Notes: generated by a model not told the origin, from the sequence alone. DNA of 64,000 nucleotides from Polyangiaceae bacterium UTPRO1 (GCA_002050235.1 MWST01000032.1:600-64599); one strand, 5' to 3'; positions 3,903-58,552 are shown, numbered from the stretch's first letter. A program made the numbers and translations.

Positions 3903-3942
3903 GCCGTTTGCCGCCGCAGCCGCCTCCCGGAGCGATGCTCGA

Positions 3943-4944: not shown

Positions 4945-5070
4945 CCGACAGCCCCGTGCAAGGCGGCGTCGGCCGGCGTCACCGGGAGCTTCGCAGCGGA
5001 CGATCGCAAGCCGGCGGCGCAGAGCTTCCCGGTCCGCAGCGCGGCTGTTACAGTCCTCGGCGGCTCAGGC

Positions 5071-34464: not shown

Positions 34465-34573
34465 GGGGCCTACACTCTAGCGGCGATCGCGGCGCCGTGC
34501 ACCGCCGGGAATGACGGGCGCAGCACGGCGCGCTTGACCGATTCGGCGCCCTGTACCAATAGGAGCGGCCAAC

Positions 34574-36163: not shown

Positions 36164-36961
36164 TCACGCGGCGGCGACACGGGCGTCGAGGAACGCCGCG
36201 ACCGCGGCATTGAACTCTGCCGGACGCGCCAGGTTCACCAGATGCCCGGCGTCCGCTATCTCGACGAGCTCGGCGCTCGGGATCGCACCGGCGAGGGCGC
36301 GGCTCGCGTCGAGCGAGAGCCGATCGCGCGCCCCCACGACGACGAGCGTCGGCGTTCGCAGACGCGCCGCGCGCGCCGCCAGCGTCGCCGCGTCCGGCTG
36401 CACCGCGATCACGCCGCGCAAGACGTGCGCCAGCGCGTACGGTCGATGTTCGAGGAAGCCGCAGCGCACGAGCGCCGCCCCCTCGGGTGCGAGGCCGGAC
36501 GACGGGCCCCACACGAACTCGGCGCCGGCGGCCTCGAGTCCGTCCCGCTCGATGCGAGCGGCGAAGCGCTCGGCGAGCGCCGTGTAGCTCCCGGGCCGAT
36601 CGCCGCCCGCCGGGAACGCCGCCAAGACGAGGGCGCGGGTCCGCTCCGGGTGAGCGAGCGCGAAGCGCAGAGCGATGCCTGCGCCCATCGACAGGCCGCC
36701 GACCACGGCAGCCGACACTCCGACCCGGTCGAGCACGCGCCCGACGTCGGCGACCAACGCTTCGGGCGTGTACGCAGCGGGATCGAGCGGCGCCTCGCTG
36801 CGCGCGTGGCCGCGGGCATCGAAGCGCACGACCCGGTAGCGAGCCGCGAGGGCGCGCGCCTGGCCGCGGAAGTTGCGAGCGCTGCCGCCGAAGCCGTGGC
36901 CGAGCACCACGACCGGACCCGCCCCCTCGGCCTCGACGTGCAACCGGGGTGCGTCAGCCAT
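36164..36961 (-). CDS. Alpha/beta-fold hydrolase
   Basis: 265 aa. It has HGFGGS, the nucleophile elbow GLSMG and a C-terminal GH. It resembles the 3-oxoadipate enol-lactonase/haloperoxidase-type family. Confidence 0.8.
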   Translation of the reverse strand: MADAPRLHVEAEGAGPVVVLGHGFGGSARNFRGQARALAARYRVVRFDARGHARSEAPLDPAAYTPEALVADVGRVLDRVGVSAAVVGGLSMGAGIALRFALAHPERTRALVLAAFPAGGDRPGSYTALAERFAARIERDGLEAAGAEFVWGPSSGLAPEGAALVRCGFLEHRPYALAHVLRGVIAVQPDAATLAARAARLRTPTLVVVGARDRLSLDASRALAGAIPSAELVEIADAGHLVNLARPAEFNAAVAAFLDARVAAA

Positions 36962-37097
36962 CCGTCACTCCGGCCTGCCGGCGAGCCGATCCGTTACCCC
37001 GGCGCCGCTCCGGCGGCACCTGCCGGCCGCGCCCCTGCCGGCCGCGACCGGCGATCACCGCAATGCAGACCGCAGTTGTCATGCGACTCATCCTGGT

Positions 37098-39083
37098 ATG
37101 CCGGTTGCTTGCGAAAACGACGTGGACGCGATCGGTAGCGCTGCGTTCCGACATCGCCTCGGCCTCGTACCGGCGGCGCGCCGGCTCGCGGTCATCGTGA
37201 CCGTATTCGCCGGCATCGTAGCCGTTCTCGTCGTGCTCGTGAACGCAGAGATGGCCATCATGGCGAGCGTCCGCGCCTACGCCGAGGGTGAGAGCTACTG
37301 GTCGAAGGGACAGAAGGACGCGGTCTTCCACCTCCGGAGCTACGCGGCCTCGCGCGACGCCGCCGACTGGAAGCGCTTCCGCGCCGCGATCGCGGTGCCG
37401 CTCGGCGACCACCGCGCCCGCGTTGAGCTCGCGAAGCGCGCGCCCGACCTCGACGCCGCCCGCGCCGGCCTGCGCGCCGGGCGCAATCATCCCGAAGACA
37501 TCGACGACATGATCATGCTCTACCGCCGCTTCGGCGGCGTGTCGTACATGGCGCACGCGATCGCGGCCTGGAGCGAGGCCGACCGCTACCTCTGGAAGCT
37601 CGTGCACGCCGGCGACAGAGTGCACGCCAAGGTCTTGGCCGGCGACACCGACTTCGCGCCCGAGCTCCGCCGCGTCGCCTCCCTGAATCGGAAGCTCACG
37701 CCCGTCGAGGAGGCCTTCTCGGCGACCCTCGGAACCGGCGCCCGCATGCTCCGCCGCCTCCTCCGGCTCGCCATCGACGGCATGGCGTTGGCGCTCGTGA
37801 CCGTCGGCATGACGATCTCGTGGTTGCTGCTTCGCCGCATGCAGCGCGGCGAGGAGCGCTACCACCATCTGCTCGAAACCGCGGGCGACGCGATCTTCGT
37901 CGTCGACGCCGCCAGCGGCCGGATCGTCGACGCCAACCGCCGCGCCGGCGACCTCATCGGCGTCCCGGTAGCCGACCTCATCGGGCGCGCCGCCGAGCGC
38001 TTCATGCGCTGCGAGGATCTCGCGGGCCAGCCGCCGAACGTCGTCGAGCAGCCCGCGCACGGTCACGCCGTGGTGAGCGGCATCGGCCTACGCCGCGCCG
38101 ACGGCCGCTCCGTCCCGGTCGAGGTGACGACCAGCGCCGCAGTCGTCGACGGTCGCCCGATCCTGCAGTGCATCGCCCGCGACGTCACCGAGCGCGAGCG
38201 CGCCGCCGCCGCGCAGCGCGCCGCGACCCGCACACTCGAACGGTCGTTCGCCGAGGTCCAGCGCGCCCGCCGCCAGTCCGAGGAGCGCGCCTTCGCCCTG
38301 GCGCGGCAAGCCGTCGAGCTCGACCTCGCCCGCACCGCGGCGCTCGAATCGGTGCGCGCGAAGTCGGAGTTCGTCGCCACCATGTCGCACGAGCTGCGGA
38401 CGCCGCTCAACATCGTTCTCGGCTACGTCGACATCCTGCACGACGCCGGCATGGGCCCGGTCAACGACGAGCAGCTCGACACGCTCGACCGGATCCGCGC
38501 CAGCGCCCTCCAGCTCCTCGAGCTGATCGACGGCACGCTCGCGATCGGCCGCCTCGACGCCGGGAGGGAGAACGAGCTCCGCGAGGCCGTCGACGTGCGC
38601 GCGCTCTGCGACGAGGTCAGCGCCGCGTTCGCGCCCCTCGTGCCGGCCGGCGTCACGCTGCGCACGCGCTGCGATCTCGGCAGCCGTCGACCCTGCCTCG
38701 ACCGCGTGAAGCTCAAGACGATCGTCCGCAACCTCGTCGGCAACGCCCTCAAGTTCACCGACACCGGCATCGTCGAGATCGGCGCCCGCAGCGAGGGCCA
38801 CGACGTGGTCCTCGAAGTGCGTGATACCGGGATCGGCATGCGGCCGGAGGAGTTGCCGCACATCTTCGACATGTTCCGCCAGTGCGACGGCTCGAGCACT
38901 CGTCGCTACGGCGGCGTCGGGCTCGGGCTGCACATCGTGAAGCGCTTCACCGATCTCCTCGGCGGCAGCGTCGACGTCACCAGCGAGCCCGGCGCCGGCA
39001 CCTCGTTCATCGTGCGCCTCCCGGACCGCAGTGCGGGAGCGCCGGCGGACTCGGAGGGCCGGCGCAGCGGCAGTGAGCTATGA
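37098..39083 (+). CDS. Membrane-anchored PAS sensor histidine kinase (no cognate response regulator adjacent)
   Basis: 661 aa from ATG 37098. It has one N-terminal TM segment, a ~190-aa unassigned sensor region, a second TM segment and a PAS domain (LLETAGDAIFVVD). The HisKA motif is MSHELRTPLN and the HATPase_c motif is DTGIGM...GGVGLGLHIV. The start is uncertain. Confidence 0.85.
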   Translation: MPVACENDVDAIGSAAFRHRLGLVPAARRLAVIVTVFAGIVAVLVVLVNAEMAIMASVRAYAEGESYWSKGQKDAVFHLRSYAASRDAADWKRFRAAIAVPLGDHRARVELAKRAPDLDAARAGLRAGRNHPEDIDDMIMLYRRFGGVSYMAHAIAAWSEADRYLWKLVHAGDRVHAKVLAGDTDFAPELRRVASLNRKLTPVEEAFSATLGTGARMLRRLLRLAIDGMALALVTVGMTISWLLLRRMQRGEERYHHLLETAGDAIFVVDAASGRIVDANRRAGDLIGVPVADLIGRAAERFMRCEDLAGQPPNVVEQPAHGHAVVSGIGLRRADGRSVPVEVTTSAAVVDGRPILQCIARDVTERERAAAAQRAATRTLERSFAEVQRARRQSEERAFALARQAVELDLARTAALESVRAKSEFVATMSHELRTPLNIVLGYVDILHDAGMGPVNDEQLDTLDRIRASALQLLELIDGTLAIGRLDAGRENELREAVDVRALCDEVSAAFAPLVPAGVTLRTRCDLGSRRPCLDRVKLKTIVRNLVGNALKFTDTGIVEIGARSEGHDVVLEVRDTGIGMRPEELPHIFDMFRQCDGSSTRRYGGVGLGLHIVKRFTDLLGGSVDVTSEPGAGTSFIVRLPDRSAGAPADSEGRRSGSEL

Positions 39084-39512: not shown

Positions 39513-40928
39513 GTGACGGGAGGTGGTGTGCACGCGGAACGACGATCACGGCTTTCGGCGCTCGAACGGGTGCTGCGCATCTTCACGGACATCCGCGCCG
39601 GCGAAGGGCCGACGAGCCTGGCGCTCTTCGCCAACGTCTTCCTGATCCTCTGCGCCTATTATTTCATCAAGCCGCTGCGCGAGAGCTGGATCGCCGTGTC
39701 GGACATACGCGGGCTCTCCAAGATGGAGGTCAAGGCCTACTCGAGCTTCGGACAGAGCCTGCTGCTCGCCGGGATCGTCTCGTACTACGGCCGCCTCTCG
39801 GCGCGGTGGCCGCGCCGGACGCTGATCACGCGCGCGACGCTGGCCTGCATGGCCTGCCTCGTCGTCTTCTGGATGCTCCAACCGGGGTTCATCCTCGCCA
39901 ACCTGCCGGGCTCGGGCATCGCCTTCTATCTCTGGGTCGGCATGTTCGGCGTCTTCATCGTCGCCCAGTTCTGGGCCTTCGCGGCGGACCTCTACGCCGA
40001 CGAGCGCGGCCAGCGGCTACTGCCGCTGATCGGCATCGGTGCGACCGCAGGCGCCGCGGCGGGCTCGTTCTTGACCGAGCAGCTCGTCCGCAGCCGCTGG
40101 GTCGATAGCGGCATGCTGCTGCTCCTCGCCAACGCTCCGCTCGCACTCTCGATCGCGCTCACCCGGATCGCCGATGCCCGCGGCCCGCTCGGCACGCCCA
40201 AGCACGAGCGCGTTCGGCCGACGGCCCCGGCCGCCGCCGACGGCCACGGAGCTCTGGTCTTCGTGCTGCGGCACCGCTACCTCTTCGCCGCCGCGCTGGT
40301 CGCCCTCCTCACCAGCTGGGTGAACACCAACGGCGAGAACCTCCTCTTCCGCGTCGTCCAGGAGGGCCTCGAGCAAGAGCGCCAGGCCAAAGGCATCACC
40401 GATCCGGCGGCGACGATCGGCTTCGTCCGCGCCGGCACCGCCGCTTTCTACGGCGACTATTACTTCTGGGTGAACGTGAGCGCCCTCGTGCTGCAGGCGA
40501 TCGTAGCGTCGCGCCTCCTCAAGTACGGCGGCTTCGGCGTGATCTTCCTCATGCTGCCCACGATCGCCCTCGTCTCCTACTCCTCCATGGCGATCATCCC
40601 GCTGCTATGGATGGTGCGGCTCATGAAGATCGCCGACAACAGCGTCGACTACTCCATCAACAACACCGCCCGACAGGTGCTCTGGCTACCGACGACCGCC
40701 GCCATGAAGTACAAGGCGAAGCCGGTGGTCGACTCGCTGTTCGTACGCTTGGGCGACGGCTGCGCCGCCCTCACGGTGCTGGTGGGCGTACAGGTCCTGC
40801 ACCTCTCGACGCGGCATTTCTTCTACGTGACCGTGGCGCTCGTGCTCCTGTGGTTGGTGATGGCGGCGGGCATCGTCCGCGAGCATCGGCGGCTGGTCGC
40901 GGCGCGCTCCGGCACCGCGGCTGCCTGA
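39513..40928 (+). CDS. TLC (ATP/ADP translocase, Npt1/Npt2)-like MFS-type membrane transporter
   Basis: 471 aa and about 11-12 TM segments. The N-terminal motif FLILCAYYFIKPLRESWIAV resembles the ILFNYxILRxxKDxLVV motif of TLC-family carriers. The family assignment is from memory. Confidence 0.65.
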   Translation: MTGGGVHAERRSRLSALERVLRIFTDIRAGEGPTSLALFANVFLILCAYYFIKPLRESWIAVSDIRGLSKMEVKAYSSFGQSLLLAGIVSYYGRLSARWPRRTLITRATLACMACLVVFWMLQPGFILANLPGSGIAFYLWVGMFGVFIVAQFWAFAADLYADERGQRLLPLIGIGATAGAAAGSFLTEQLVRSRWVDSGMLLLLANAPLALSIALTRIADARGPLGTPKHERVRPTAPAAADGHGALVFVLRHRYLFAAALVALLTSWVNTNGENLLFRVVQEGLEQERQAKGITDPAATIGFVRAGTAAFYGDYYFWVNVSALVLQAIVASRLLKYGGFGVIFLMLPTIALVSYSSMAIIPLLWMVRLMKIADNSVDYSINNTARQVLWLPTTAAMKYKAKPVVDSLFVRLGDGCAALTVLVGVQVLHLSTRHFFYVTVALVLLWLVMAAGIVREHRRLVAARSGTAAA

Positions 40929-40934
40929 CCGGTC

Positions 40935-43900
40935 GTGGCGCGCTCGGCCGCACCCGTCACCCGGCCGCTCTCGGTCGAGCCCGGCGAGGGGCGCGTCCTC
41001 GGCTGGAGCGCCCTGGTCCTCTTCGCCGTCTCGTGGGCCTCGATCTCGGTCGCCAACGTCGCCGACACGCTCTTCTTGAAACGCATCGGCGTCGATCGCC
41101 TGCCCTGGGTCTTCCTCGGGAACTCCGTGCTCCTCACCTTCACGACCTTCGCGGTCGGACGCCTCGCGGTCCGCTGGGAGTCGCGCACGCTGCTCGTGGC
41201 GACGCTCGCGGGACTCGGGCTGGCGCTGGTGCCGCTCTGGCTGCTGGTCGCCGCCGACGTCGGCAGCGCCTTCGTGCTGCTCGTGCTGGCGGCGAAGCAG
41301 CTCGACGCGATCGCGCTCGTCGTCTTCTGGACCGCCGTCGGAAGCCTGGTGAGCGCGCGCCAGGGCAAGCGGCTCTTCGCGCCGATCAGCGCCGGCGGCA
41401 CGTTCGGAGCTGTCGCCGGCAGCTTCGCCTCGGGCTGGCTCGGCCGAACGTTCGGCATCGCGACGCTCCTGCCGTTGGCGGGCATCACCATGGCGCTCGC
41501 CGCAGCAGCGGCTGCGCCGCTGCTGCGCCTGCGGCGCCCGCGCTACTACCGCCCCGCGCCCGTCCACGCGCTCGCCGACGTCGCCGGCCGGCGGTTCGGC
41601 CCGCTGTGGCGCACCAGCGCCCTCTTCCGCGTCCTCGCGCTGACCTCGCTCCTGGCCGGCATCCTCGGCCCGATGCTCTATTTCGAGCTCGCCTACGTCG
41701 CCGACCGGGCCACCTCCGGCCACGGCGGCGAGCAGCGCCTCCTCGACCTCTACGCGCTCTTCCGCGGCTGGCTGAACGTCGGCGTCATGGTGATCCAGGT
41801 GACCGGTACGTCCGCAGTCTTTCGCCGCCTCGGCGTGCCGCTGGCGGCGGCCCTCTCGCCCGTGATCTACCTCCTCGGACTCGTCGGGCTGAGCGTGCGG
41901 CTGAGCCTCGCCGCCGGCATCGCCGCGGTCGCCGGCGCCAACCTGCAGGACCACGCCGTCTACGATCCCGCGCAGCGCATCCTGGTGACCCTATTCCCCG
42001 AGCGCGTGCGCGCCGCCGTGACGACGCTGATCGACGGCCCCGTGAAGCGGGCCGGCGGCCTGATCGGAAACGTCGTCATCATCATTGCCCTGGCCGTCGG
42101 TACTCCCGCCTGGGTCGGCTACGCCGGCCTGCCGATCGCGGCGGCGTGGCTGGCGGCGGCGCTCGTCCTCTGGCGCCTCTACCCGGCCCTGCTCCTGCAG
42201 GTAGCGACCGCGCGGCGCAGCGACTTCGAGGAACCGCCGCCCCTCACCGAGTTGCTCGACGGCGGCACGGTGCGGCTCCTCGAGCAGAGCCTCGGCGGCA
42301 GCGACCTCGAGCGCTGCCGCGCCGCCTGCGACGTCGTCGTCGAGGCGGCTCCGCGCCGCGCCGTGCGCGCGCTCGCCCGCGCGCTCGGCGCCGCACCGGC
42401 AGCGCATCGGCCGCTCCTCGTCGCCGCCCTGCAGCGCGTGCTCGGCGAGGACTCTGCCGCGGCGCTCGTTCACGACGAGAGCGCGCGCCTGCTGGCGGCG
42501 CTCCTGGCCGCGCCCGCGGGCCTCGGCGCCCTCGATCGCGCCCACCTCGTGCAGGCCTACGGGCGCCTCCTCGGCGCCGCCGCCGCGCAGTCGCCGGCGC
42601 TGCGCACGGCGCTCGCCGACCCGCATCCCGCGGTCGCGCTCGCGGCGCAGGCGGCCCTCGCCCGGGCCGGCGCCGCCGCGAACACGGCGCTCGACGCCGC
42701 CCTCTCCGCTGCGTTCGCGCACCCTGACGCCGACGTGCGCCGGATCGCGGGCGAAGAGCTCGGCATCGAGCTCCGCCGGCCGGCAGCGGACGGCGCGGCG
42801 TGGGCGGTCCGGCTCGAGCAGTTGCTGGCCCGCCTCGAAGCGCCCGCGGACCGCGCCCACGCCGCCGCGACCCTGGCCGCGGCCGCAGCCGTCCACGGCG
42901 CGCGCCTCCGTCCGCACGCGGCGCGCATCCTCGTCCATCGCCGCGACGACGATCCCGCCGTCCGCATCGCCGTGCTCGACGTCATCGGCCGCGCCCGGCT
43001 CCTCGAAGCGGCGGAGAGCCTCGTCGATCATCTGACCGCCGCCGACCCGCGCGAAGCGGCGGCGGCGTGCGCGGCGCTGCGCGCCCTCGGTGCCGACGCC
43101 GTCGACGTCCTCCTGCACACGCTCCGCTGCGGCCGTTTCCGCGCCCGCGAAGCGGTGCGATCGATCCTCGTCGGCCTGCCGATCGATCCCGAGCGCCTGC
43201 GGGTGCTCCTCGACCGCGAGGTCGAGGTCATGCGCCGCCTGATCCTCCGCACCGAAGCGCTGCGCGTCGGCGGAGTCGCAGACGCGGTGCTGCAACGCCT
43301 CCACGAGCAGCTCGACGAGAGCTCCCACACGGCGGTAGTGCTGATCGCGACGGCGCAGGACGACGAGCGTCTGGCGCGCATCGGCCGCCTCCTCGGGCGA
43401 ACGCACGGCACGCGCGACCGCGCCCTCGTGCTCGAGGCCCTCGAAGCGCTCCTACCGCAGCGCGAGCGCGAGCGCCTGCTGCCGCTGCTCGATGACGCCA
43501 ATCCGGGAGCTCGCGCACGTCGCGCCATGGAGGCGCTCGGGCGGCCGCTGCCGACGTTCGCGGAGGCGGTTGCCGAGGTGCTCGCCTCCGGCGACGGGCT
43601 CGGTCGGGATCTCCTGCGCGGCACCCTGCCGGCGCCGACGCTGGCGGACCTCGGCGGCGACGTGACATACGAGCGGCCGGACCAGCGTATGACCCACGTC
43701 GACATGATCCTGGCGCTCCGCCGGCTCGACCTCTTCGCGGGGCTGACGACCCGGCAGCTCTCCGAGCTGGCGCGGGTCGTCGCCGAGTGCCGGGTCGCGG
43801 CGGGCGAGACGATCGTGCGCGAGGGCGAGCCGGCCACGCAGATGTACTTCATCGTCGCCGGCGCGGTGCGGGTCACCAGGGAGGGCGCGGCGGTATCGGC

Positions 43901-44147
43901 TCTCGGCCCGGGCGAGTTCTTCGGCGAGATCGCCGTGCTCGACGGCGAGCAACGCTCGGCGTCGGTGACCGCCGACGGCCCCGTGCACCTCCTCCGCCTC
44001 GATCGCCACGACCTCTTCGAGGTCATGGAGGAGCACCCGGCCATAGCGGTCGCCATCTGCCAGACGCTCGGCCGCCGCATTCGCGAGCTCCTCGACGAGC
44101 GCGCCGACGCGGCGGCGGCTCCGGGATCGCCGCAGAGCCGCTTCTAG
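40935..44147 (+). CDS. TLC-like membrane domain fused to HEAT-like repeats and a C-terminal cyclic-nucleotide-binding domain
   Basis: 1070 aa, with a GTG 6 nt after the upstream stop. The N-terminal ~420 aa are polytopic. The middle has Ala/Leu-rich HEAT-like repeats (DPHPAVALAAQAAL, HPDADVRRIAGEEL, DDDPAVRIAVLDVIG). The C-terminal cNMP fold is FFGEIAVLDGEQRSASV. Confidence 0.75.
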   Translation: MARSAAPVTRPLSVEPGEGRVLGWSALVLFAVSWASISVANVADTLFLKRIGVDRLPWVFLGNSVLLTFTTFAVGRLAVRWESRTLLVATLAGLGLALVPLWLLVAADVGSAFVLLVLAAKQLDAIALVVFWTAVGSLVSARQGKRLFAPISAGGTFGAVAGSFASGWLGRTFGIATLLPLAGITMALAAAAAAPLLRLRRPRYYRPAPVHALADVAGRRFGPLWRTSALFRVLALTSLLAGILGPMLYFELAYVADRATSGHGGEQRLLDLYALFRGWLNVGVMVIQVTGTSAVFRRLGVPLAAALSPVIYLLGLVGLSVRLSLAAGIAAVAGANLQDHAVYDPAQRILVTLFPERVRAAVTTLIDGPVKRAGGLIGNVVIIIALAVGTPAWVGYAGLPIAAAWLAAALVLWRLYPALLLQVATARRSDFEEPPPLTELLDGGTVRLLEQSLGGSDLERCRAACDVVVEAAPRRAVRALARALGAAPAAHRPLLVAALQRVLGEDSAAALVHDESARLLAALLAAPAGLGALDRAHLVQAYGRLLGAAAAQSPALRTALADPHPAVALAAQAALARAGAAANTALDAALSAAFAHPDADVRRIAGEELGIELRRPAADGAAWAVRLEQLLARLEAPADRAHAAATLAAAAAVHGARLRPHAARILVHRRDDDPAVRIAVLDVIGRARLLEAAESLVDHLTAADPREAAAACAALRALGADAVDVLLHTLRCGRFRAREAVRSILVGLPIDPERLRVLLDREVEVMRRLILRTEALRVGGVADAVLQRLHEQLDESSHTAVVLIATAQDDERLARIGRLLGRTHGTRDRALVLEALEALLPQRERERLLPLLDDANPGARARRAMEALGRPLPTFAEAVAEVLASGDGLGRDLLRGTLPAPTLADLGGDVTYERPDQRMTHVDMILALRRLDLFAGLTTRQLSELARVVAECRVAAGETIVREGEPATQMYFIVAGAVRVTREGAAVSALGPGEFFGEIAVLDGEQRSASVTADGPVHLLRLDRHDLFEVMEEHPAIAVAICQTLGRRIRELLDERADAAAAPGSPQSRF

Positions 44148-46081
44148 CGGACCCGGACTCTCCCGGCGTCGACGTCGGCGAGGAGCGCGGCGATGCGCTG
44201 CTGCAGCCGTCCGATCTCCCCGGCGGTGAGGCCGAGCTGGATCTTGCCGCGGGCGATACGAACCCCTTTGGCCGGATCCAGAGGAGCGGTGCGGCGCCCG
44301 AGCCGGAAGATGCCGGCCGCGTCGACGTCCATGTCGAAGAGCGTCGACAGGCGCTCGACCTCCTCCGGCGGCAGGGCGCGGAGCCGGGCTACGGGATCGG
44401 CGCGGAGCCAGGGGACGCGGAGCGTGTTCCAGTTGCGTACGAAGAAGTTCCACGGGAACCCTTCGAAGGCGATGCCGTTGTCGATCGAGAATACGCGCGG
44501 ATCCTCGGGGTCGGTGGAGATCAGGAAATTGCCGTCGCGGCCGTCGCGATGGTCGATGAGATAGGTGAGCAGGTTCATGTCCGCGAGGTGCGCGCCGTAG
44601 TGCGGATCGCGCTCGACGCGCTCGTCGATGTCGTCGTTCAGGTCGTCGGCGACCGCCACGTCCTCCATCCACGCGGCGAAGAGCCCGAGGACGCAGCGGC
44701 TGCCGGGGAGAGTCGGCTTCGCGTCCTTCAAGACGCGGTAGACGTCGACGGGGATGCAGCGCGGGACCGTCGTCGGCACGACGTAGTCGTCCTCGTCGAA
44801 GATCCAGCGTTGTATGGCGTAGGCGGCGACCTCTTTGCGCGGCGAGTTGTTCCAGCCGTCGAGCGTCGGCCTCGGGAACGGCTTCCACTTGACCTTCATG
44901 CTCCGGCCGTCGGCGAAGCGCACCGTGAACCGCGACGCCCCGGTGACGCCGGCGCCGGCGCGCTTCACCTCGCTGATCTCGAAGTCGTCGAGGGCGAGCT
45001 TCAGATCGAGCACCGACGGCGCCATCGGCCAGTTGCGCGGCAGCGCCTTGCCGGCCTGCCGCTGCGGTCCGAATAGATGCTCGGCGGCGCGATGGGCGAG
45101 CTGCGCGATCAGCTCGCCGCGGTAGGCCGGCGTCGCCTCGGTGAATACCGCGAGCGCGAACTGGTGGCCGTCGGGAGCGCGGACGATACCGGCGTCGGCG
45201 TAGTCGGGACCCCAGGTGCCGCTCTTCGCGTAGACCTCGAGGCCCGGAATGCGCGCCGCGCCGCCGGCGATCCGGCGCGCCAGGTGCGGCTGCTGCTTCG
45301 GATCACGCTTCATGCGGCGGCGGACGGCGGCGGAGTCCTCGGGCGTGAGCGCGCGATCGGTGGCGAGGAGCCCCAGCAACTTCGCCGTACCGATCGCCGT
45401 CATCGCCTGGCGGTTCGGATACTCGCCGTCGGCGCTGACGAGACCGCCGGCGACGCCATGGTCGCGGAGGAACTGCCGATCGCGACCGACGAGATCGCCG
45501 CCGCCGTCGTAGGTCGGATTGACGCAGTGGAGGTCGTCGATGCCGAGGCTCTGGAGCCAGCGCTTCACCACCTGCCGGCGCTCGCGGTAGCGCGCGTACT
45601 CGCCGGGCGGCAGCTCCGGACCCGGCGCGGTGTCGGTCAGCCGGGCGAAGACCTTCTGCGTCGCTCGATTGCTGCTCTCGCGGATCATCGCCTCGAGCTC
45701 GGCATCGAGCCCGGGATCGATGACCAGCCGCCCTTCCTCCTGCCAGCGATACGCCGCCATCAGGTAGACGAACTTGACGACGCTCGCCGGATAGATCGGC
45801 CGATCGCCGCCGGCGTGCGCGAGCCGTGGCGGCCCGTCGCTCGGAAGGTCGAGGAGTGCGACGCCGACTGCGGCGCGCCGCAGCGCCGGGTCGAAGTCGG
45901 CCAGCGTCGCCATCGTCCGCTCGAGGAAGGTCTGCAGCTCGGAGGCGGGCCGGATCGTCGCCAGCCATTGGCGTGCCGCCGCGGCCGGCGGCGGCGGCGC
46001 CGCCGCCGCGCCCCGCGCGCACCCGACGACCAGCAGCACCACCGCCATCCGCGACCAAGAGCGCATGCAGCTCCGCACCAT
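44144..46081 (-). CDS. Lipoprotein: class A beta-lactamase-fold serine hydrolase fused to a type II PI3/PI4-kinase-like domain
   Basis: 645 aa from ATG 46081, with the lipobox LLVVGC. The N-domain has SVVK (SxxK), SSN (the SDN position) and KSG (KTG). The C-domain has KVKWKPF, RKEVAAYAI, IDHRDGRDGNFLI (catalytic-loop-like) and IDNGIAF (DFG-like). Confidence 0.7.
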   Translation of the reverse strand: MVRSCMRSWSRMAVVLLVVGCARGAAAAPPPPAAAARQWLATIRPASELQTFLERTMATLADFDPALRRAAVGVALLDLPSDGPPRLAHAGGDRPIYPASVVKFVYLMAAYRWQEEGRLVIDPGLDAELEAMIRESSNRATQKVFARLTDTAPGPELPPGEYARYRERRQVVKRWLQSLGIDDLHCVNPTYDGGGDLVGRDRQFLRDHGVAGGLVSADGEYPNRQAMTAIGTAKLLGLLATDRALTPEDSAAVRRRMKRDPKQQPHLARRIAGGAARIPGLEVYAKSGTWGPDYADAGIVRAPDGHQFALAVFTEATPAYRGELIAQLAHRAAEHLFGPQRQAGKALPRNWPMAPSVLDLKLALDDFEISEVKRAGAGVTGASRFTVRFADGRSMKVKWKPFPRPTLDGWNNSPRKEVAAYAIQRWIFDEDDYVVPTTVPRCIPVDVYRVLKDAKPTLPGSRCVLGLFAAWMEDVAVADDLNDDIDERVERDPHYGAHLADMNLLTYLIDHRDGRDGNFLISTDPEDPRVFSIDNGIAFEGFPWNFFVRNWNTLRVPWLRADPVARLRALPPEEVERLSTLFDMDVDAAGIFRLGRRTAPLDPAKGVRIARGKIQLGLTAGEIGRLQQRIAALLADVDAGRVRVR

Positions 46082-46171
46082 AGCCGGAAGCGCACCGCAC
46101 GTCAGCGGCGCCAGCGGTATCTCGGGCCGGCGAATTCCGGTACAACCCGGCCGCTCATGGAGGGATTTGCG

Positions 46172-49100
46172 ATGGAGCGGCGGCGACGCGTGCTGGCGGT
46201 GGTCGTATTCTCGGGAATGCTCGCCGCGGGCGGCGCCGCGGCGGCATTCGAGGCGCCGGCGCTGTCGCCGGGACAGCAGAAGACCCTGAAGCAGAACTTC
46301 GCGCTCTGTCTCGGCAAGCTGAAAGGGCCCTATACCGAGAACTTCTGCCTCTGCCGCGACGGGCGCAAGCTCCCTGTCCAAGGGCCGAACGGCGCGGTGC
46401 GCATCCCCTGTCCGAACCCGCTGTTCTGCGCCGCCTACCGCGCTCCCTGGGCCGAGGCCCTCGCCCATGAGCGCATGTACATCGCCAACATCTTCTCTCG
46501 CGACGAGCATCTCTGGTCGACGTTCCCGAACCACCACGACCTCGTCCGCGGCTACGTGCTCGAGAAGTACTTCGTCGAGACGCACCCCACCCACAAGCTC
46601 GCGCAGATGAAGCAGTACCGCGGACTTTCCAGCGCCGAGGAAGAGCTTCCGGCAGCGCTCGCGTTCTTCGAGAAATATCTCGGCGGCGACGAATTCGACG
46701 GCGACCGCCACTTCCTCCTCGCCTACGAGCTGCAGCGCCGCTACTTCGCGCGCGACGACGTCGGCCAGGTGCAGAAGATCCGCGACCTGGCAGTACGGAT
46801 CGAGCGCGCCAAGGCCGACTTCAAGCCGCTGAAGGACGCCGTCCACAACCAGGTCTCGGCGGGCCTGATCCCGAGCCTCGTCGCCTACCGCGCCAAGCTG
46901 CCTGCCGGCGCGACCCGCGATCAGCTCGACGATCTCGTCGGCGAGATCCGCAAGCTCACGAGCCTCGACGAGAGCGCGCTCGCGCCGCAGGTCGGTGCGA
47001 TCGCCGATCCGGCCGTGCGCGCGGCGCTGACGAAGCTCCTGCCGAACCCGTCGACGCCGCCCGTCGAAGCGGCGACCGCGCTCGGGACGATGATGGCGAC
47101 GGCGCGGCGCGCCGTCGGCGAGAGCACGACCGCGCCCGCCGACAGACGCCGCCTCGTCGACCTCGACATCACCGCCGCGCAGGTGCTGCAGCAGCGCGGC
47201 AGCGCCGCTCTCGCCGGCCCCGGCACGACGGCGCAACAGCACGTCGCAGTGCTGGGGGCGCTCTCCGCGGCCGCCTACGGCGCCGGGCTCCTGAACGCGC
47301 GCGAGTACGAAGCGGCGAGCACGGCGATCCGCGAGCTCGGCGCCGACGCCGAGCCCGATCGCGCCGACTTCGCGCGCCGCCTGCGCGTGGCGAAGCGCGT
47401 CGTCGAGTGGGCCCAGGGCAACGCCGAGCTCGCCTTCGCCGAGGTGATGGCGCCCTGGACCTTCCTCCTCCCCGACGTCGCCGGCATCCGCGACGACGTG
47501 CTGCGCGGGTCGCCGCTCATCCTCTACGCCGAGGTCGTGAACCGGCTCGACGACTTCGCCGCCGGCGGCGAGCGGCCGAAGCATCGCTTCTTCGGCACCG
47601 CCGTCGAGGGCGACGTCCGGGCGCTGAATCCCGGCCTCGCCTACGGTCGACTGCGCGTCGGCCCCAAGGACCACGGCTACACGCGCGACGACATCGTGGC
47701 GCTCACGGAGACGCCCGCCGACCTCGAGCCGGCAGCGGGCATCCTGACGCAGGGCGAGGGCAACGTGCTCTCGCACGTCCAGCTCCTGGCTCGCGCCCTC
47801 GGCATCCCCAACGTCGTGCTCGGCTCGCGGGCGTTCGACGTCCTGCGCATGCACGACGGCAAGGCGGTGGTGCTGGTCGTGACCCCCGGCGGCCGGGTCG
47901 TCCTCGAGGAAGCTTCGCGCCTGTCGCCCGAGATCCGCGAGGCCTACGCCGAGTACACGCGCAACGAGACCCGCCGCACCGCCGGCGCGCTCGGCGGCGG
48001 CGCCGGACGCCTCCACATCGATCGCGCCAAGATCGACCTCGGCCCGAAGCTCCCCATCGACCTCAGAGACGTGCGCCGCAAGGACTCGGGCGTGTTCTGC
48101 GGCCCCAAAGCGGCATTCCTCGGCGAGCTGAAGTCGATCTTTCCCGACCACGTGGCGCGCGGGATCGTGGTGCCGTTCGGCGCCTACCACGCGCACTACT
48201 CGCGGGCGGCAGTGATCGTGCCCGCAGAGCTGCGCGGCGATAACGTCGCCGTTCCCGGTGAGCCTCTCTCGGCCTTCGTCGAGCGCACCTACCATACGTT
48301 CTTCGCCGAGCTCGTCCCGTCGGGAAAGAGCGAGCGCGAGCTCTCCGCCTGGATCGAGCCGCGCCTCGCCGTCGTCCGCCACACCATCCGCCAGACACCG
48401 CTCGATCCGGCCCTGCGCCAAGCGATCCGCGACGGACTGGCGAAGAACGGGCTCCTGCGCGGCGGCGACGACACCGCCGGCTGCTTCGTGCGCAGCGACA
48501 CCAACGTCGAGGATCTCGACAATTTCAACGGCGCCGGTCTGAATCTCACCCTCTTCAACCGCCGCACGCTCGACGACATCTATTCCGGCCTGGCCGAGGT
48601 GTGGGCCTCGCCTTTCCAGTTCCGCTCGTTCTCGTGGCGGCAGACGCTGATCGACGACCCGGTCTGGGTGCTGTCGTCGGTCGTGATCCTGGAGTCGGTG
48701 CCGTCGGAGAAGTCCGGCGTGCTGGTCACCGCCGACGTCAACGACGGCGCCCCCGGAAAGATGCTGGTCGCGACCTCGGAAGGCGTCGGCGGCGCCGTCG
48801 ACGGCACCTCGGCCGAGACCCTGCTCTGGTCGCCGCAGGGCGTCGAGCTGGTCACGCTCTTCAAGTCGCCGTGGCGGACCGCACTCGACGCCGAGGGCGG
48901 CAGCAAGATAGTTCCGTCGACCGGCCGCGACACCGTGCTCGAGCCGGCGGAGCTCACGCAACTGGTCGCCGCCGGCAAGAAGATCGGCGCCGAGCTGCAG
49001 CCGGTCCGCGACGCCGCGGGAAAACCGAAGCCCTGGGACATCGAGTTCGGCTTCACCGGCGGCAAGCTCTGGCTCTTCCAGTGCCGCCCGTTCCTCGGCA

Positions 49101-49198
49101 ACGACGAGCTCCGCAACATCCCGGCGCTGGCAGCACTGGACAGTACGCCGAGCGGGACGCGGGCGCAGCGACTCTCGCTCGCGCAGGTGCTGCGGTGA
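46172..49198 (+). CDS. Signal-peptide protein with PEP-utilizer phosphohistidine swivel domain followed by PPDK_N-type ATP-grasp domain (dikinase-like)
   Basis: 1008 aa, with GGAGGG 7 nt upstream of ATG 46172. The signal is VVVFSGMLAAGGAAAA, followed by a 6-Cys N-region. The swivel motif is GILTQGEGNVLSHVQLLARALGIPNVV (His codon 47774-47776). The ATP-grasp motifs are GPKAAFLGEL, VRSDTNVEDLDNFNGAGLNLT, SGVLVT and WDIEFGFTGGKLWLFQCRP. There is no PEP/pyruvate TIM-barrel domain. Confidence 0.75.
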   Translation: MERRRRVLAVVVFSGMLAAGGAAAAFEAPALSPGQQKTLKQNFALCLGKLKGPYTENFCLCRDGRKLPVQGPNGAVRIPCPNPLFCAAYRAPWAEALAHERMYIANIFSRDEHLWSTFPNHHDLVRGYVLEKYFVETHPTHKLAQMKQYRGLSSAEEELPAALAFFEKYLGGDEFDGDRHFLLAYELQRRYFARDDVGQVQKIRDLAVRIERAKADFKPLKDAVHNQVSAGLIPSLVAYRAKLPAGATRDQLDDLVGEIRKLTSLDESALAPQVGAIADPAVRAALTKLLPNPSTPPVEAATALGTMMATARRAVGESTTAPADRRRLVDLDITAAQVLQQRGSAALAGPGTTAQQHVAVLGALSAAAYGAGLLNAREYEAASTAIRELGADAEPDRADFARRLRVAKRVVEWAQGNAELAFAEVMAPWTFLLPDVAGIRDDVLRGSPLILYAEVVNRLDDFAAGGERPKHRFFGTAVEGDVRALNPGLAYGRLRVGPKDHGYTRDDIVALTETPADLEPAAGILTQGEGNVLSHVQLLARALGIPNVVLGSRAFDVLRMHDGKAVVLVVTPGGRVVLEEASRLSPEIREAYAEYTRNETRRTAGALGGGAGRLHIDRAKIDLGPKLPIDLRDVRRKDSGVFCGPKAAFLGELKSIFPDHVARGIVVPFGAYHAHYSRAAVIVPAELRGDNVAVPGEPLSAFVERTYHTFFAELVPSGKSERELSAWIEPRLAVVRHTIRQTPLDPALRQAIRDGLAKNGLLRGGDDTAGCFVRSDTNVEDLDNFNGAGLNLTLFNRRTLDDIYSGLAEVWASPFQFRSFSWRQTLIDDPVWVLSSVVILESVPSEKSGVLVTADVNDGAPGKMLVATSEGVGGAVDGTSAETLLWSPQGVELVTLFKSPWRTALDAEGGSKIVPSTGRDTVLEPAELTQLVAAGKKIGAELQPVRDAAGKPKPWDIEFGFTGGKLWLFQCRPFLGNDELRNIPALAALDSTPSGTRAQRLSLAQVLR

Positions 49199-50859
49199 CG
49201 GCGCACACCCGGCGCGGCGGCGGGCGGCTTTGGCGTCTGCTCGCCGCCGCCGCGGCCGCTCTCACGTTCGTCACGCTCCGCGTCGCGAGCGCGGCCCTCG
49301 ACGCCGGCGGCGACACCGCCTGGGACGGCAGCGAGCCGCCGCCCGGGGTCTACTTCCACTGGTACGAGCCGTCCTTCTACGCCGGCTTCGCGCCCCGCAC
49401 CCAGGATCCGAGTCGTCTCCACATCGAGCTCGGGCGCGGCAACCAGGTGCGGGTAACGGTCGTCCTCGGCGACGCCGAGCTCGACGCCTACCTGGGCGAC
49501 CTCCAGGCGCGACGCGCGGTCGTCCAGGAGCTCGTCGACAGCCGGATCATCACCCTCAGCACCAACCGCGCCTGGGAGCGCTTCACCAGCGCCCTCGACG
49601 ATGCCGGCGTCGCGGCGGCGCTGGCGGCGCGGGCGGAGACGAAGCCCGAGGCCTGGCGGGCGCGGAGCCTCGCGGTGATGACGGCGCTGAACCCCGGGCG
49701 CGTGTTCCGGATCGCTATGCCGCTCGCCGCGGTCGCCGCTCGCTGGCGGCCGCTGCTGGCACGCCTCGACGGCAGCGATCCGATAGAGCGCCTCGACGCC
49801 GCCAACGCCGCGCTGCCGGGTCGCATCGTGCTCGAAGAGCTGACACCGCCGCTCGGCGCCGCGCTCGATCGCTGCCTCGATCCGGCGCGCGGCCCAGAAA
49901 GCGCGAAGCCCGCTTACGAGCTCTGCGTCAAGGACTTCATCGAGACCGCGAGCGCGCGCCGCTACCGCGTCGTCGACGGCGCCGTCGTCGCCCACGAGTT
50001 TACCGCCATCTACCCCGCCGGCACGGTCGAGGGCTCGACGACCTACAGGGGCGAGAAGCTGCCGGACTTCGGGGTCACCGGCGTCTGGCCGCTCATCCGC
50101 CGCACCAATGGCCGCGGCATTCTCGGGATGGTCGACTACCTGTCGCCGAATCCCGGCTACGGCTTCATCCCCATGCTGCCCTACCAGTACGCCGGCGGCA
50201 TCACCTACAACGCCTTCCACAATGCCGGCGTGCGCTGCCAGTTGAACGGCACGCCGTTCCTGCCGAGCGCCTGGCGACAGGTCGCCGGCGAGCGCAGCGG
50301 CAAGCCGTACGAGAACCTCTGGATCGTCGGCCGCGGTCCGACGTCGCACGGCTGCACGCGGCTGCCGTCAGGCCACATGAGCGAGCTCCGCCAGATCGTG
50401 CCGTCGGAGTCGGACGCGCTCCTCCAGGTGAAGACCTATCGCGATCTGCCCGGCTGCTACGACGTCTTCGACATCGACGGCGACGGCGCCCCCGAAGTGA
50501 TGGGCGTCCAGTACTACCTCGCGTACCGCAGCAACGAGCACACGCCGGTGAAGGCCTGGGTGAGCAACCGGCGCGAACCCTTCTACCGCTGGCTCTACGG
50601 CAACAACGTCGTTCTCGGACCGGTCGGTGCGGCCCGCCTCCAAGAGGTGCCGGTCTGCCGCTTCGCCGGCAAGAAGGCGGCGGAGCGCGCGGTGCTCCGC
50701 GACCTGCCGCTCTACGAAGCCAAGTACCAGCCCGAGCAGATACAGTTCTTCCGTAGCAAGGCGGCTCCGGACAGCGCTGCCGGAGTCGAGCTCAACCGGG
50801 AGTTGCGCAAGGTCGGCGCCGGACACGTCCTCGAGCGCTCGCGCCTGCTGCTGCGCTGA
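49195..50859 (+). CDS. Exported protein with C-terminal L,D-transpeptidase (YkuD)-like catalytic motif, paralog 1
   Basis: 554 aa from a GTG that overlaps the upstream stop (GTGA). It has a hydrophobic N-terminal signal-like segment and a ~380-aa unassigned N-region. The catalytic motif is GRGPTSHGCTRLPSGHMSELRQIV (Cys codon 50353-50355). Confidence 0.7.
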   Translation: MTAHTRRGGGRLWRLLAAAAAALTFVTLRVASAALDAGGDTAWDGSEPPPGVYFHWYEPSFYAGFAPRTQDPSRLHIELGRGNQVRVTVVLGDAELDAYLGDLQARRAVVQELVDSRIITLSTNRAWERFTSALDDAGVAAALAARAETKPEAWRARSLAVMTALNPGRVFRIAMPLAAVAARWRPLLARLDGSDPIERLDAANAALPGRIVLEELTPPLGAALDRCLDPARGPESAKPAYELCVKDFIETASARRYRVVDGAVVAHEFTAIYPAGTVEGSTTYRGEKLPDFGVTGVWPLIRRTNGRGILGMVDYLSPNPGYGFIPMLPYQYAGGITYNAFHNAGVRCQLNGTPFLPSAWRQVAGERSGKPYENLWIVGRGPTSHGCTRLPSGHMSELRQIVPSESDALLQVKTYRDLPGCYDVFDIDGDGAPEVMGVQYYLAYRSNEHTPVKAWVSNRREPFYRWLYGNNVVLGPVGAARLQEVPVCRFAGKKAAERAVLRDLPLYEAKYQPEQIQFFRSKAAPDSAAGVELNRELRKVGAGHVLERSRLLLR

Positions 50860-50882
50860 CGACCTGCCGCCAAGGAGATCCC

Positions 50883-52616
50883 ATGCGCACGACGACCAGC
50901 ATCATCGCAGCACTGGCGCTGTTTTCCTGGATGCCCGGCACGGCGGCGGCCAAGGACTTCGCCGCCCCCCGGCTCGCCGGCGATCGCGCCGCGCCCGGGC
51001 TCATGGTCGAGGAGCCGCCGCGCTACGGCGTCTTCTACGACGCTCCGGAGCCGTCGTTCTACACCGGCTTCGCCCCGCGCACGCAGGACCCCGCCGCTCT
51101 CCACATCCATCTCGGGCGCGGCAACCAGCTGCGGGTGACCGAAGTGCTGTCGGACGCGGTCGTCGACGAGTACGCGCGCGACCTCGCCGAGCGCCGCCGC
51201 ACCTACCGCGCGCTCGTCGACTCCGGCCGGCTGCAGCTGACGCAGAACACCGCCTTCGAGGCGTTCGAACGCCGGCTCGACGCCCTCGGCCTCGACGACC
51301 TGGCGAGCGCGGAAGGAGCGCTGGCGCCCGACGCGCTCCGCGCCCGCAACCTCGACCTCATCGAGACGCTGAATCCCGGACGCGTCTTCCGGATCGCGAT
51401 CCCGGTGCGGAAGCTCGCCGCCCGCTGGATCGGCGAGCTCGACCGCATCACCGGCGGCGCCCGCGCGCGTCTCGACGCAGGCCGCAGGCTCGACCTCGCG
51501 AACGCGCTCCTGCCGACGCGCCTCTGGCTCGCCGACCTCCCGGCCGACGCCGCCGCCGCTCTCGACGATCTCGTCCGTCGCGCCCCCGCCGATGCCGGTG
51601 ATACGGCCGCTGTCGACGCCCTCGTACCCGCCTACGGCGCCCTCCTCGCGCGCGTCGGCGGCGGCCGCTATCCGGTCCGGGACGGCGTCGTGCGCTTCGC
51701 GGAGTTCACGGCGATCTACCCGGTCGGTACCGTCGCCGCGTACACGACGTGGCGGGGCCGGACGATCCCGCTGTATCCGACGCCGGGCCGGCGCGCCCTC
51801 ACCACCCATCAGCGCTCCCTGGTCGCCGACCACATCCCGGTCGAGGACTCGTACAGCTGGTCGCCGTGGCTGCCGTACATGCACGTGACGCCGACGATGC
51901 ACAACGCCATCCACACGCCGTGGTGGAAGATGGGTCCGGGCGACGCCGGGTTCCTTCCCGCGTCGTGGCGGCAGGTGGCCGACGGCAGCCGCGACGGCGC
52001 GCCGTTCACGAAGCTCTGGCTGCTCTCCCGCGGCCCCATGTCGCACGGCTGCACGCATCTGAACACCGGCCACATCGCCGAGCTCCGCCAGATCCTTCCC
52101 GCCGACGGCAACCGCCTGTACGACGTCGAGGTCTTCCTCACCCGCTCCGAGCATTACGACGTCTTCGACATCGACGGCGACCTCGTGCCCGAGGTGATGG
52201 GCGTACGCTACTTCATCGCCTACTCGCTGATCGCCGGGAAGCCGGATCGCCTGCGGGTGAAGAACGAGCGCCGGGCCTTCTACGACTGGCTCTACGGCGG
52301 CGATCTCCAGTGGCAAGGAGACCAGGGCGTCTTTCACGACGCCCACGAAGCCCGCTTCAGCGGCCGCGACGCGCGCGAGGGTCGAGGCTACGCGCGCATC
52401 CTGCTCCGCGAAGCGCCCTACCAGCCGGAGACCGTGCAGTTCTACCGCATGATCGACATCCCCTTCGCTCGCGCGCTCCGCCAGGTCGGGCTTCACCGGC
52501 GCGCGCTCGAAGTCCCCGATCGGCGGCAAGCCGCGAACGCGCCGATGATGCGCGGCGACGCCGGCGGCGCGGGCCGCTACGCGCAGCCGTTGTCCGCACC
52601 CCGGCGCAGCCGCTAG
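50883..52616 (+). CDS. Exported protein with C-terminal L,D-transpeptidase (YkuD)-like catalytic motif, paralog 2
   Basis: 577 aa, with AGGAG 5 nt upstream of the ATG. It has a clear Sec signal (IIAALALFSWMPGTAAA). It is colinear with paralog 1 (PSFYTGFAPRTQDP, LNPGRVFRIAIP). The catalytic motif is SRGPMSHGCTHLNTGHIAELRQIL (Cys codon 52050-52052). Confidence 0.75.
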   Translation: MRTTTSIIAALALFSWMPGTAAAKDFAAPRLAGDRAAPGLMVEEPPRYGVFYDAPEPSFYTGFAPRTQDPAALHIHLGRGNQLRVTEVLSDAVVDEYARDLAERRRTYRALVDSGRLQLTQNTAFEAFERRLDALGLDDLASAEGALAPDALRARNLDLIETLNPGRVFRIAIPVRKLAARWIGELDRITGGARARLDAGRRLDLANALLPTRLWLADLPADAAAALDDLVRRAPADAGDTAAVDALVPAYGALLARVGGGRYPVRDGVVRFAEFTAIYPVGTVAAYTTWRGRTIPLYPTPGRRALTTHQRSLVADHIPVEDSYSWSPWLPYMHVTPTMHNAIHTPWWKMGPGDAGFLPASWRQVADGSRDGAPFTKLWLLSRGPMSHGCTHLNTGHIAELRQILPADGNRLYDVEVFLTRSEHYDVFDIDGDLVPEVMGVRYFIAYSLIAGKPDRLRVKNERRAFYDWLYGGDLQWQGDQGVFHDAHEARFSGRDAREGRGYARILLREAPYQPETVQFYRMIDIPFARALRQVGLHRRALEVPDRRQAANAPMMRGDAGGAGRYAQPLSAPRRSR

Positions 52617-58424: not shown

Positions 58425-58552
58425 GTCGGCATGTGCCAGCGGCGGCACGCGGCAGCGCGGCCGTCGTCAGAGTTGGCGCGCGATGATGCCATAGGTGGCC
58501 GAGCGCGCGCGCCGCGACGCGATACGGCAAGCGCCATGAACTGGTCCATGGC

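Follow-up and report, generated by a model that had tools for sequence, protein, structure and literature searches.

Modules that recognize penicillin or peptidoglycan are coupled to signalling or catalytic modules in the PASTA-domain Ser/Thr kinases (PknB/PrkC) and in the BlaR1 sensors, where the sensor lies outside the cell, the kinase or protease in the cytoplasm and a membrane helix between them. PBP-A (Tll2115 of Thermosynechococcus), BlaB (Streptomyces cacaoi) and LRA-5 are class-A-like proteins devoid of the hydrolytic (deacylating) Glu166, and we know of no kinase-like fusion or operon partner for any of them. Among kinases that work outside the cytosol, those of the Fam20 family act in the Golgi lumen, a compartment that needs imported ATP; the periplasm of bacteria is normally regarded as ATP-free. 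Here we analyse a gene of Polyangiaceae bacterium UTPRO1 that lies in a stretch of 64,000 nucleotides (GCA_002050235.1, MWST01000032.1:600-64599; hereafter the window, with positions counted from its first letter) and encodes a PBP-A-like domain followed by a kinase-like domain, the fold of which is nearest to type II phosphatidylinositol 4-kinases (PI4KII) and Fam20. In contrast to PASTA kinases and BlaR1, both domains stand behind one signal peptide, the protein having a single hydrophobic segment (residues 12-30) and no further transmembrane segment; moreover, the kinase is not of the Hanks type and the sensor is not PASTA. Close by lie genes for homologues of nucleotide transporters (NTT), one of which, of 1070 amino acids (aa), has exactly the architecture (NTT, HEAT repeats and cyclic-nucleotide-binding domain, NTT-HEAT-cNBD) reported to occur widely among free-living bacteria, Deltaproteobacteria among them, with unknown function (Major, Embley & Williams 2017, PMC5381601). 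That paper reports no link of NTT-HEAT-cNBD proteins to exported kinase-like proteins, and the loci presented here add that link. Both folds are known; their combination, the exported PI4KII/Fam20-like family and its NTT linkage appear to be undescribed. The initial annotation of this stretch, produced by a model from the sequence, knew of no penicillin-recognizing fold joined to a kinase-like one, and in the full-text literature we likewise found nothing on the kinase-like family, on the fusion or on an NTT-kinase link, PMC5381601 being the only relevant paper.

Translation of positions 44144-46120 on the minus strand gave a single open frame, from the Met codon at 46081 down to the stop codon (Table 1). 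The start of an identical protein found elsewhere (P0001) has been called at the second in-frame ATG, and the third ATG, at 46048 (Met12), falls within the signal peptide. Fused homologues form about 25 clusters (P0001-P0025) of 635-685 aa that are 64-82% identical and alike in architecture and linker, and their sources are independent assemblies (JGI, ENA, NCBI and Logan). The recurrence of fused homologues of the same length in independent assemblies shows therefore that the fusion is real and not a frameshift artefact. The opposite view, that a frameshift or the loss of a stop codon made one frame out of two genes, had been raised by the initial annotation itself, and it could draw on the separate state of the halves in many genomes and on nanopore-derived relatives that are broken (such as locus L005). 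Against it stand the unbroken frame in the window, the fusion and linker shared by clusters from different sources, and the clean exchange of the kinase's signal peptide for a short linker, which leave it barely credible. The full-length protein was modelled by AlphaFold2 (AF2) with a mean predicted local distance difference test score (pLDDT) of 92.0 and a predicted template-modelling score (pTM) of 0.82. Public annotation calls the fused protein 'serine hydrolase' (NCBI homologue) or 'beta-lactamase class A'. A genomic island finds no support: the G+C content is even along the whole window (0.67-0.77) and does not break at the fusion locus.

Whether the fusion is conserved or split in other genomes has a double answer, since besides the fused clusters the halves occur as separate overlapping genes in Binatia and in other lineages. 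In metagenome-assembled genomes (MAGs) of Binatia they lie at 3913-5001 and 5001-6011 in one locus (L001) and at 4916-6004 and 6001-6987 in another (L002). The beta-lactamase-like gene encodes 362 aa in these loci and the kinase-like gene 336 and 328 aa, respectively, with an overlap of 1-4 nucleotides; this stop/start overlap suggests translational coupling of the pair. The flanks of both loci match the window, with genes for a PPDK_N protein, a 552-aa protein, a protein with a cyclic-nucleotide (cNMP)-binding domain and a 480-aa transporter. When separate, the kinase-like and the beta-lactamase-like genes each encode their own signal peptide. Indeed, stand-alone kinase-like proteins carry a signal peptide or lipobox directly before a conserved PRNWP, and a short linker of low model confidence stands in the fusion in place of this signal peptide. 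On these sequence grounds, the fusion is the derived state of a conserved two-gene pair, and the joining removed the signal peptide of the kinase. We note separately that in L005 (9232-10891) the N-terminal domain upstream of a kinase-like open reading frame (ORF; P0121, 345 aa) matches as a fragment only, and that P0121 begins inside the end of that domain; the arrangement suggests a fusion gene that carries a frameshift or was wrongly called, rather than a true split.

Signal-peptide features imply that both halves are probably exported. This fits the beta-lactamase/penicillin-binding protein (PBP) fold, the location of which is always extracytoplasmic, as well as a conserved pair of cysteines in the kinase-like domain. 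Of the stand-alone family members with a complete N-terminus, 126/134 have a hydrophobic N-terminal segment and 36/134 a lipobox-like motif (pattern [LVI][ASTVI][GAS]C after the h-region of the signal peptide). A signal-like N-terminal segment is also present in all fused homologues compared. The protein of the window had been described as a lipoprotein, and its lipobox with Cys21 does exist and is kept in some orthologues (P0002, P0005); it does not hold for the group, most orthologues carrying an A-x-A site of the signal-peptidase-I type instead. The signal region of the window protein itself offers an alternative site of this type after its A-R-G / A-A-A stretch. A conserved lipoprotein status was hence rejected, given that the lipobox Cys varies among fused orthologues.

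The beta-lactamase fold proposed for the N-terminal half was borne out by Pfam Beta-lactamase2 (PF13354), with an E-value of 2.5e-14 and 53.6 bits for a cutoff of 22. The three motifs S100-V-V-K103, S136-S-N138 and K286-S-G288 follow the class A order and are invariant or nearly so among 47 homologues. Their spacing, which the initial annotation had also taken as correct, is not that of the class: SxxK and SxN are 36 residues apart and SxN and KxG 150, whereas TEM-type class A enzymes have ~60 and ~104 residues between the same motifs. The NCBIfam bla_class_A equivalog gave a partial match of 18.5 bits (E 8.7e-4) for a cutoff of 200. Among PDB sequences, the sole relative is PBP-A (Tll2115), for which HMMER aligns all three motif regions, SSN being paired with SDN and KSG with KTG. 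In a structure search with Foldseek, PBP-A (2j9o/2j7v) was again at the top, with E 1.6e-11 and template-modelling (TM) scores of 0.72-0.74 (normalized to the target), followed by a Sphaerobacter 'beta-lactamase', BlaB and LRA-5; ordinary class A enzymes ranked lower. PBP-A, BlaB and LRA-5 are thus the best structural matches, at an identity of ~18-20%. PDB entries of this group titled 'L158E mutant' and 'V166E mutant' agree with its lack of Glu166. Between SxN and KxG, we found no invariant Glu among the 47 homologues in a region for which no alignment to class A sequences of the PDB was obtained; the residues invariant there are H185, P189-T-Y191, D196, G199-R200, Q203, D207 and N223-R224. 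A true class A beta-lactamase was rejected on the NCBIfam score and the nearest structures. As judged from sequence and model, the N-terminal domain is a putative acyl-serine enzyme of penicillin-binding type, akin to PBP-A, rather than a proven beta-lactamase.

The four motifs that had suggested a resemblance of the C-terminal half to PI4-kinases are all present in the translation: KVKWKPF (residues 396-402), RKEVAAYAI (415-423), YLIDHRDGRDGNFLI (507-521) and SIDNGIAFEGFPW (532-544). We aligned 46 members of the family (alignment A1; residue numbers of the full protein are those of the domain plus 347) and found G381, K398-W-K400, N412, P414-R415, E417, H511, D513, N518 and D534-N-G536 to be invariant. 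These residues correspond to canonical kinase positions, namely the Gly-rich loop, the beta3 Lys, the alphaC Glu, the catalytic Asp/Asn loop and the metal-binding D-N-G. In the full-length AF2 model, strands 367-374 and 383-389 flank the Gly loop, strand 394-401 holds the Lys and helix 414-427 the Glu, and the H-x-D-x4-N loop comes after a long helix (493-508) and D-N-G after strand 530-532. The domain was also modelled by AF2 from A1 (pLDDT 93.4, pTM 0.92), and Foldseek with this model against the PDB placed human PI4KII-alpha at ranks 1-3 (4hnd, E 5.7e-9, TM 0.55/0.48), followed by Fam20 kinases (5yh0, E 6e-7; 5xoo; 4kqa; range 6e-7 to 1e-5) and, at lower ranks, by PI4KII-beta, PI3Ks, PI4KIII, Vps34, ATM and ordinary protein kinases. 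The proposed fusion of a beta-lactamase fold with a PI4-kinase-like domain is thereby upheld, a kinase-like hit having been obtained in structure and, for part of the family, in profile. Indeed, PF00454 was matched at E<=1 by 21/46 members (best 1.8e-6), with sub-threshold hits over the stretch from the catalytic loop to DxG (domain residues 147-195); Fam20C was matched weakly by 5 members (best E 0.017) and APH by one (E 0.03). An NCBIfam scan of the C-terminal domain gave no match, and the family has no Pfam or NCBIfam model of its own. Its homologues, 729 in a collection of 5.8 billion proteins, are nearly all stand-alone proteins of ~325 aa annotated as 'hypothetical protein', and 6 of them carry a precomputed PF00454 hit. 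A kinase-like fold nearest to type II PI4-kinases and Fam20 is therefore supported as the predicted structure of the C-terminal domain.

The likeness to PI4KII (PF00454) extends to a D-x4-N followed by D-N-G and an aromatic-rich segment, in the same order and with the same chemistry; identity, however, is 16-20% with a TM-score of ~0.5, and the C-terminal domain is bacterial and exported. Fam20C protein kinase and Fam20B xylose kinase, the second-best fold match, share with it a location outside the cytosol, but they show no significant sequence similarity to it and are eukaryotic, whereas the present family is bacterial and NTT-linked. Given its near-equal matches to PI4KII, which acts on lipid, and to Fam20, which acts on protein or sugar, the fold does not discriminate between a protein, a glycan and a lipid as substrate. 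The enzyme could be a strict PI4KII-type lipid kinase held at the membrane surface by a lipoprotein tail and aromatic loops, phosphorylating a lipid head group or a polyprenol-linked intermediate, with the PBP-like domain as no more than a tether to nascent peptidoglycan. The first place of PI4KII-alpha among structures speaks for this proposal, as do the lipobox-like signals of part of the family and the strong conservation in A1 of the aromatic segment FPWNFFVxNWNxIRVPW after D-N-G, PI4KII having an aromatic region after IDNG. On the other hand, the Fam20 protein and glycan kinases match nearly as well, the majority of the family, with A-x-A cleavage sites, seems to be exported in soluble form, and the domain lacks the Cys cluster of palmitoylation type that PI4KII has. 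Its sole cysteines, C442 and C463, are near-invariant in A1 and form a probable disulphide pair. We regard a strict lipid kinase, which is a substrate variant of the explanation that we favour below, as improbable.

The kinase-like family is rare: when 1.84 billion representatives were searched with its profile, only 652 clusters at 50% identity had E<=0.001. From GTDB, scanned with a single genome for each species, 214 loci were obtained, of which 80 were kept, all from MAGs labelled as Myxococcota, Polyangiaceae, Binatia, Acidobacteriota, Spirochaetales, Gemmatimonadota, Syntrophobacterales and a few others. We clustered the ORFs lying <=6 kb from the kinase gene and considered a locus well flanked if it had >=3 kb on both sides (n=47). 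NTT-like genes were the dominant neighbour (43/81 loci). In the well-flanked loci they occurred within 6 kb in 26/47 and within 3 kb in 22/47, across several phyla, and in ~17 loci the NTT-like gene lay directly downstream on the same strand (labels Binatia, Myxococcota, Spirochaetaceae, Syntrophobacterales and some only Deltaproteobacteria). NTT-like neighbours that pass the Pfam TLC cutoff score 87, 60 and 22 bits. Genes for exported phosphatases were the next most frequent neighbours of the kinase, a Y_phosphatase3 lipoprotein in 13 loci (E 3e-69) and a Metallophos lipoprotein in 12-13, and a gene for a DUF2252/APH-like lipoprotein occurred in 3. Furthermore, some proteins unite these functions in one chain. 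P0302 and P0331 consist of a signal peptide, the kinase and a PPP-type metallophosphatase (motifs GDVHG / GDVMDRG / GNHE), P0302 being found on two independent contigs (L084 181-2337 and L085 174-2330), and P0325 (L083 5718-8132) consists of an NTT/TLC transporter, one extra hydrophobic helix and the kinase domain.

In the window, the fusion gene is surrounded by the genes listed in Table 1.

Table 1. Coordinates of the fusion gene, its parts and its neighbours in the window
Feature	Coordinates	Strand	Remarks
Fusion gene, whole	44144..46081	-	One unbroken ORF; 645 aa from ATG 46081, 640 aa from ATG 46066; stop 44144-44146
Signal peptide	45998..46081	-	aa 1 to ~28; lipobox-like V-V-G-C21 (within LLVVGC)
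N-terminal PBP-A-like domain, class-A beta-lactamase fold	45062..45991	-	aa ~31-340; S100xxK103, S136-S-N138, K286-S-G288
Interdomain linker	45041..45061	-	aa 341-347; residues 341-346 are the only segment with pLDDT <50
C-terminal protein-kinase-like domain	44147..45040	-	aa 348-645; closest to PI4KII and Fam20
Key residues of the kinase-like domain			G376-x-G-x-x-G381, K398/K400, E417, H511-x-D513-x4-N518, D534-N-G536
NTT/TLC-like nucleotide-transporter homologue	39513..40928	+	471 aa; conserved neighbour
NTT-like protein with HEAT repeats and cyclic-nucleotide-binding domain	40935..44147	+	1070 aa; converges on fusion gene
Exported PEP-synthase / rifampicin-phosphotransferase-like enzyme	46172..49198	+	1008 aa; divergent from fusion gene
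Exported 554-aa protein, no assigned family	49195..50859	+	RGP[TM]SHGCT[RH]L motif; single N-terminal hydrophobic segment
Paralogue of the 554-aa protein, ~42% identical	~50860..52616	+	Located by tblastn; start uncertain

The 471-aa transporter homologue has many hydrophobic helices and matches TIGR00769 (E 5.5e-5), and its cluster-mates in BLAST score 87, 60, 33 and 22 bits with TLC. In the 1070-aa protein, we found cNMP_binding (E 5e-22), weak matches to HEAT_2 and MFS_1, and an N-terminal part homologous to the NTT cluster. The stop codons of this gene and of the fusion gene share a palindromic CTAG at 44144-44147, in which TAG reads on both strands; the two convergent genes leave no gap in which a terminator could fit. 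A third NTT/TLC-like paralogue, 49% identical to the 471-aa protein, lies ~8 kb downstream of the cluster (58487-60094 on the plus strand, match 58625-59896). The phosphoenolpyruvate (PEP)-synthase-like protein matches PPDK_N (E 2.8e-21) and PEP-utilizers (E 4.6e-4), and in NCBIfam, partially, PEP synthase and rifamycin phosphotransferase (Rph). It has a signal peptide (a single N-terminal hydrophobic segment, residues 7-25) and five Cys within residues 46-86. Its swivel phospho-His535 lies in GNVLSHVQLLARALG, and the swivel domain (~517-556) precedes the PPDK_N ATP-grasp (~729-974). To our knowledge, PEP synthases and rifampicin phosphotransferases are otherwise cytoplasmic, which makes this exported make-up unusual.

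Directly behind, the GTG start of the 554-aa gene overlaps the stop of the gene upstream (GTGA). For its product, Pfam gave nothing at E 0.01, with YkuD only at E 0.14 over the Cys motif, and searches of PDB sequences returned nothing. The motif RGP[TM]SHGCT[RH]L is kept in the 554-aa orthologues and in the paralogue, and is similar to the motif around the catalytic Cys in L,D-transpeptidases of the YkuD family. Orthologues occupy the same position in Binatia and Myxococcota loci, and the tandem of the two genes is kept in L003, L006 and L007. The gene set of the window also flanks the pair, whether split or fused, in L002, L003, L006-L010 and L082 (MAG labels Binatia, Myxococcales, Polyangiaceae and Deltaproteobacteria), and a divergent version is present in L014, L023, L035, L036 and L078, with a kinase 40-50% identical, a divergent Beta-lactamase2 and PPDK-like and NTT genes. 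In the closest relatives, a gene for a Y_phosphatase3 lipoprotein (~285 aa) adjoins the NTT-HEAT-cNBD gene (L004-L008 and L013) (for example L006 11972-12844), on that gene's side of the fusion; tblastn found no such gene anywhere in the window. Further upstream in the window lie genes for a solute-binding protein (33187-34476, minus strand), MdoG/OpgG of periplasmic glucan synthesis (34538-36148, plus), an alpha/beta hydrolase (36164-36964, minus) and a PAS histidine kinase (36840-39083, plus). Close relatives also have the alpha/beta hydrolase (L003, L005 and L006) or the histidine kinase (L003 and L004), and no Binatia locus was seen to carry either. A role in anti-phage defence is unsupported, PADLOC being silent on the fusion, PEP-synthase-like, 554-aa and 471-aa proteins and hitting only the generic cNMP-binding domain of the 1070-aa neighbour.

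The presence of a rifampicin-phosphotransferase-like gene beside the fusion raises the possibility of a small resistance cluster, in which the fused protein would be a bifunctional resistance enzyme composed of a beta-lactamase and an APH-type kinase. The beta-lactamase fold, in which the Ser-Lys / SxN / KxG triad is intact, a kinase-like fold of the same superfamily as aminoglycoside phosphotransferases (with the one family member that hits Pfam APH) and the partial match of the neighbour to rifamycin phosphotransferase can all be cited in its favour. Contrary to this expectation, the N-terminal domain falls far below the class A cutoff of NCBIfam, lies closer to PBP-A, BlaB and LRA-5 than to hydrolysing beta-lactamases and has no invariant Glu between SxN and KxG, and the C-terminal domain is nearest to PI4KII and Fam20 rather than to APH. 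The PEP-synthase-like neighbour has a signal peptide, the NTT synteny is kept across phyla, and the uniform G+C content bears no sign of an island. A resistance function is hence very improbable.

The reading that we favour, and that we hold at about an even chance, is an extracytoplasmic kinase module fed with ATP by NTT transporters. In this scheme, the NTT-like transporters would swap cytoplasmic ATP for periplasmic ADP or AMP, and the cytoplasmic HEAT-cNMP module may gate this transport through a cyclic nucleotide. The exchanged ATP would serve as phosphoryl donor for the exported kinase domain, which would phosphorylate a substrate of the cell envelope, and for the PEP-synthase-like enzyme. 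The fused PBP-A-like domain would bind or cleave the substrate of the kinase, most plausibly a D-Ala-D-Ala-type stem peptide of peptidoglycan or a lipid-linked precursor, and in related loci exported phosphatases (Y_phosphatase3, metallophosphoesterases) could reverse the modification. The weak YkuD-like Cys motif of the 554-aa proteins would fit a cell-wall theme, which it does not establish. In its general form, the proposal is that a set of free-living bacteria, so far known from MAGs labelled Myxococcota, Binatia, Acidobacteriota, Spirochaetales, Gemmatimonadota and Syntrophobacterales among others, run ATP-dependent phosphorylation in the periplasm: NTT/TLC proteins, including NTT-HEAT-cNBD, would export ATP, exported PI4KII/Fam20-like kinases and a PEP-synthase-like phosphotransferase would use it and phosphatases would act as erasers, the system being aimed here at the cell wall or its precursors through a penicillin-binding-type domain. 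We advance this wider claim tentatively, as possible though somewhat doubtful.

The C-terminal domain could instead be a non-catalytic or differently catalytic kinase-fold module in a periplasm that has no ATP, as textbooks hold, with the NTT link reflecting regulation or nucleotide uptake. Such a module might be a pseudokinase scaffold or a ligand-binding domain, or might use another chemistry, such as AMPylation, or another phosphoryl donor, such as polyphosphate or a lipid pyrophosphate. The kinase fold supports other chemistries, as in SelO and SidJ, and the phosphatases and phosphoesterases of the neighbourhood would fit periplasmic nucleotide scavenging as well. In addition, the characterized NTT proteins are importers in intracellular organisms (PMC5381601). 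A pseudokinase, however, is at odds with the invariance, among 46 diverse members, of all residues for canonical ATP-dependent phosphotransfer, and an ATP-free compartment with the second exported enzyme of the cluster, which has an ATP-grasp domain and a swivel His; the kinase-phosphatase fusions further suggest a cycle of phosphorylation. Taken together, we consider this alternative rather unlikely.

Several results weigh against the ATP-fed kinase module that we favour. When the C-terminal domain (residues 348-645) was scanned alone against Pfam, the only match was PF00454 with E 0.14 and 12.5 bits for a gathering cutoff of 27.1. This protein hence falls short of formal membership of that family, and of the two Pfam assignments expected for its halves only PF13354 was obtained. 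A sequence profile search against PDB sequences returned no kinase and chance-level hits only (Vps34, E 0.79); the kinase assignment therefore stands at the level of fold and motif, through structure search and motif positions. The 471-aa transporter scores 18.6 bits with Pfam TLC, just under the cutoff of 21. All homologues come from uncultured MAGs, 20/47 well-flanked kinase loci have no partner gene nearby, and P0325, found on a single contig, could be a read-through artefact. Finally, the transported nucleotide and its direction would follow solely from the NTT family, and the peptidoglycan target from the PBP-A-like fold and the weak YkuD-like motif in the neighbour.

If confirmed, a periplasmic ATP supply would represent a new kind of system. 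It would provide a counter-example to the ATP-free periplasm, the envelope processes of which are thought to be powered indirectly, and would make the exported kinases bacterial counterparts of the kinases of the secretory pathway in eukaryotes (Fam20). The NTT linkage offers a testable role for the NTT-HEAT-cNBD transporters, open since 2017 (PMC5381601). The analysis also bears on the reading of 'beta-lactamase-like' genes in resistome surveys of soil. The PBP-A-like fusion partner points to the cell wall as the target, and if this is true, phosphorylation tied to a penicillin-binding fold would be new for the biology of peptidoglycan.

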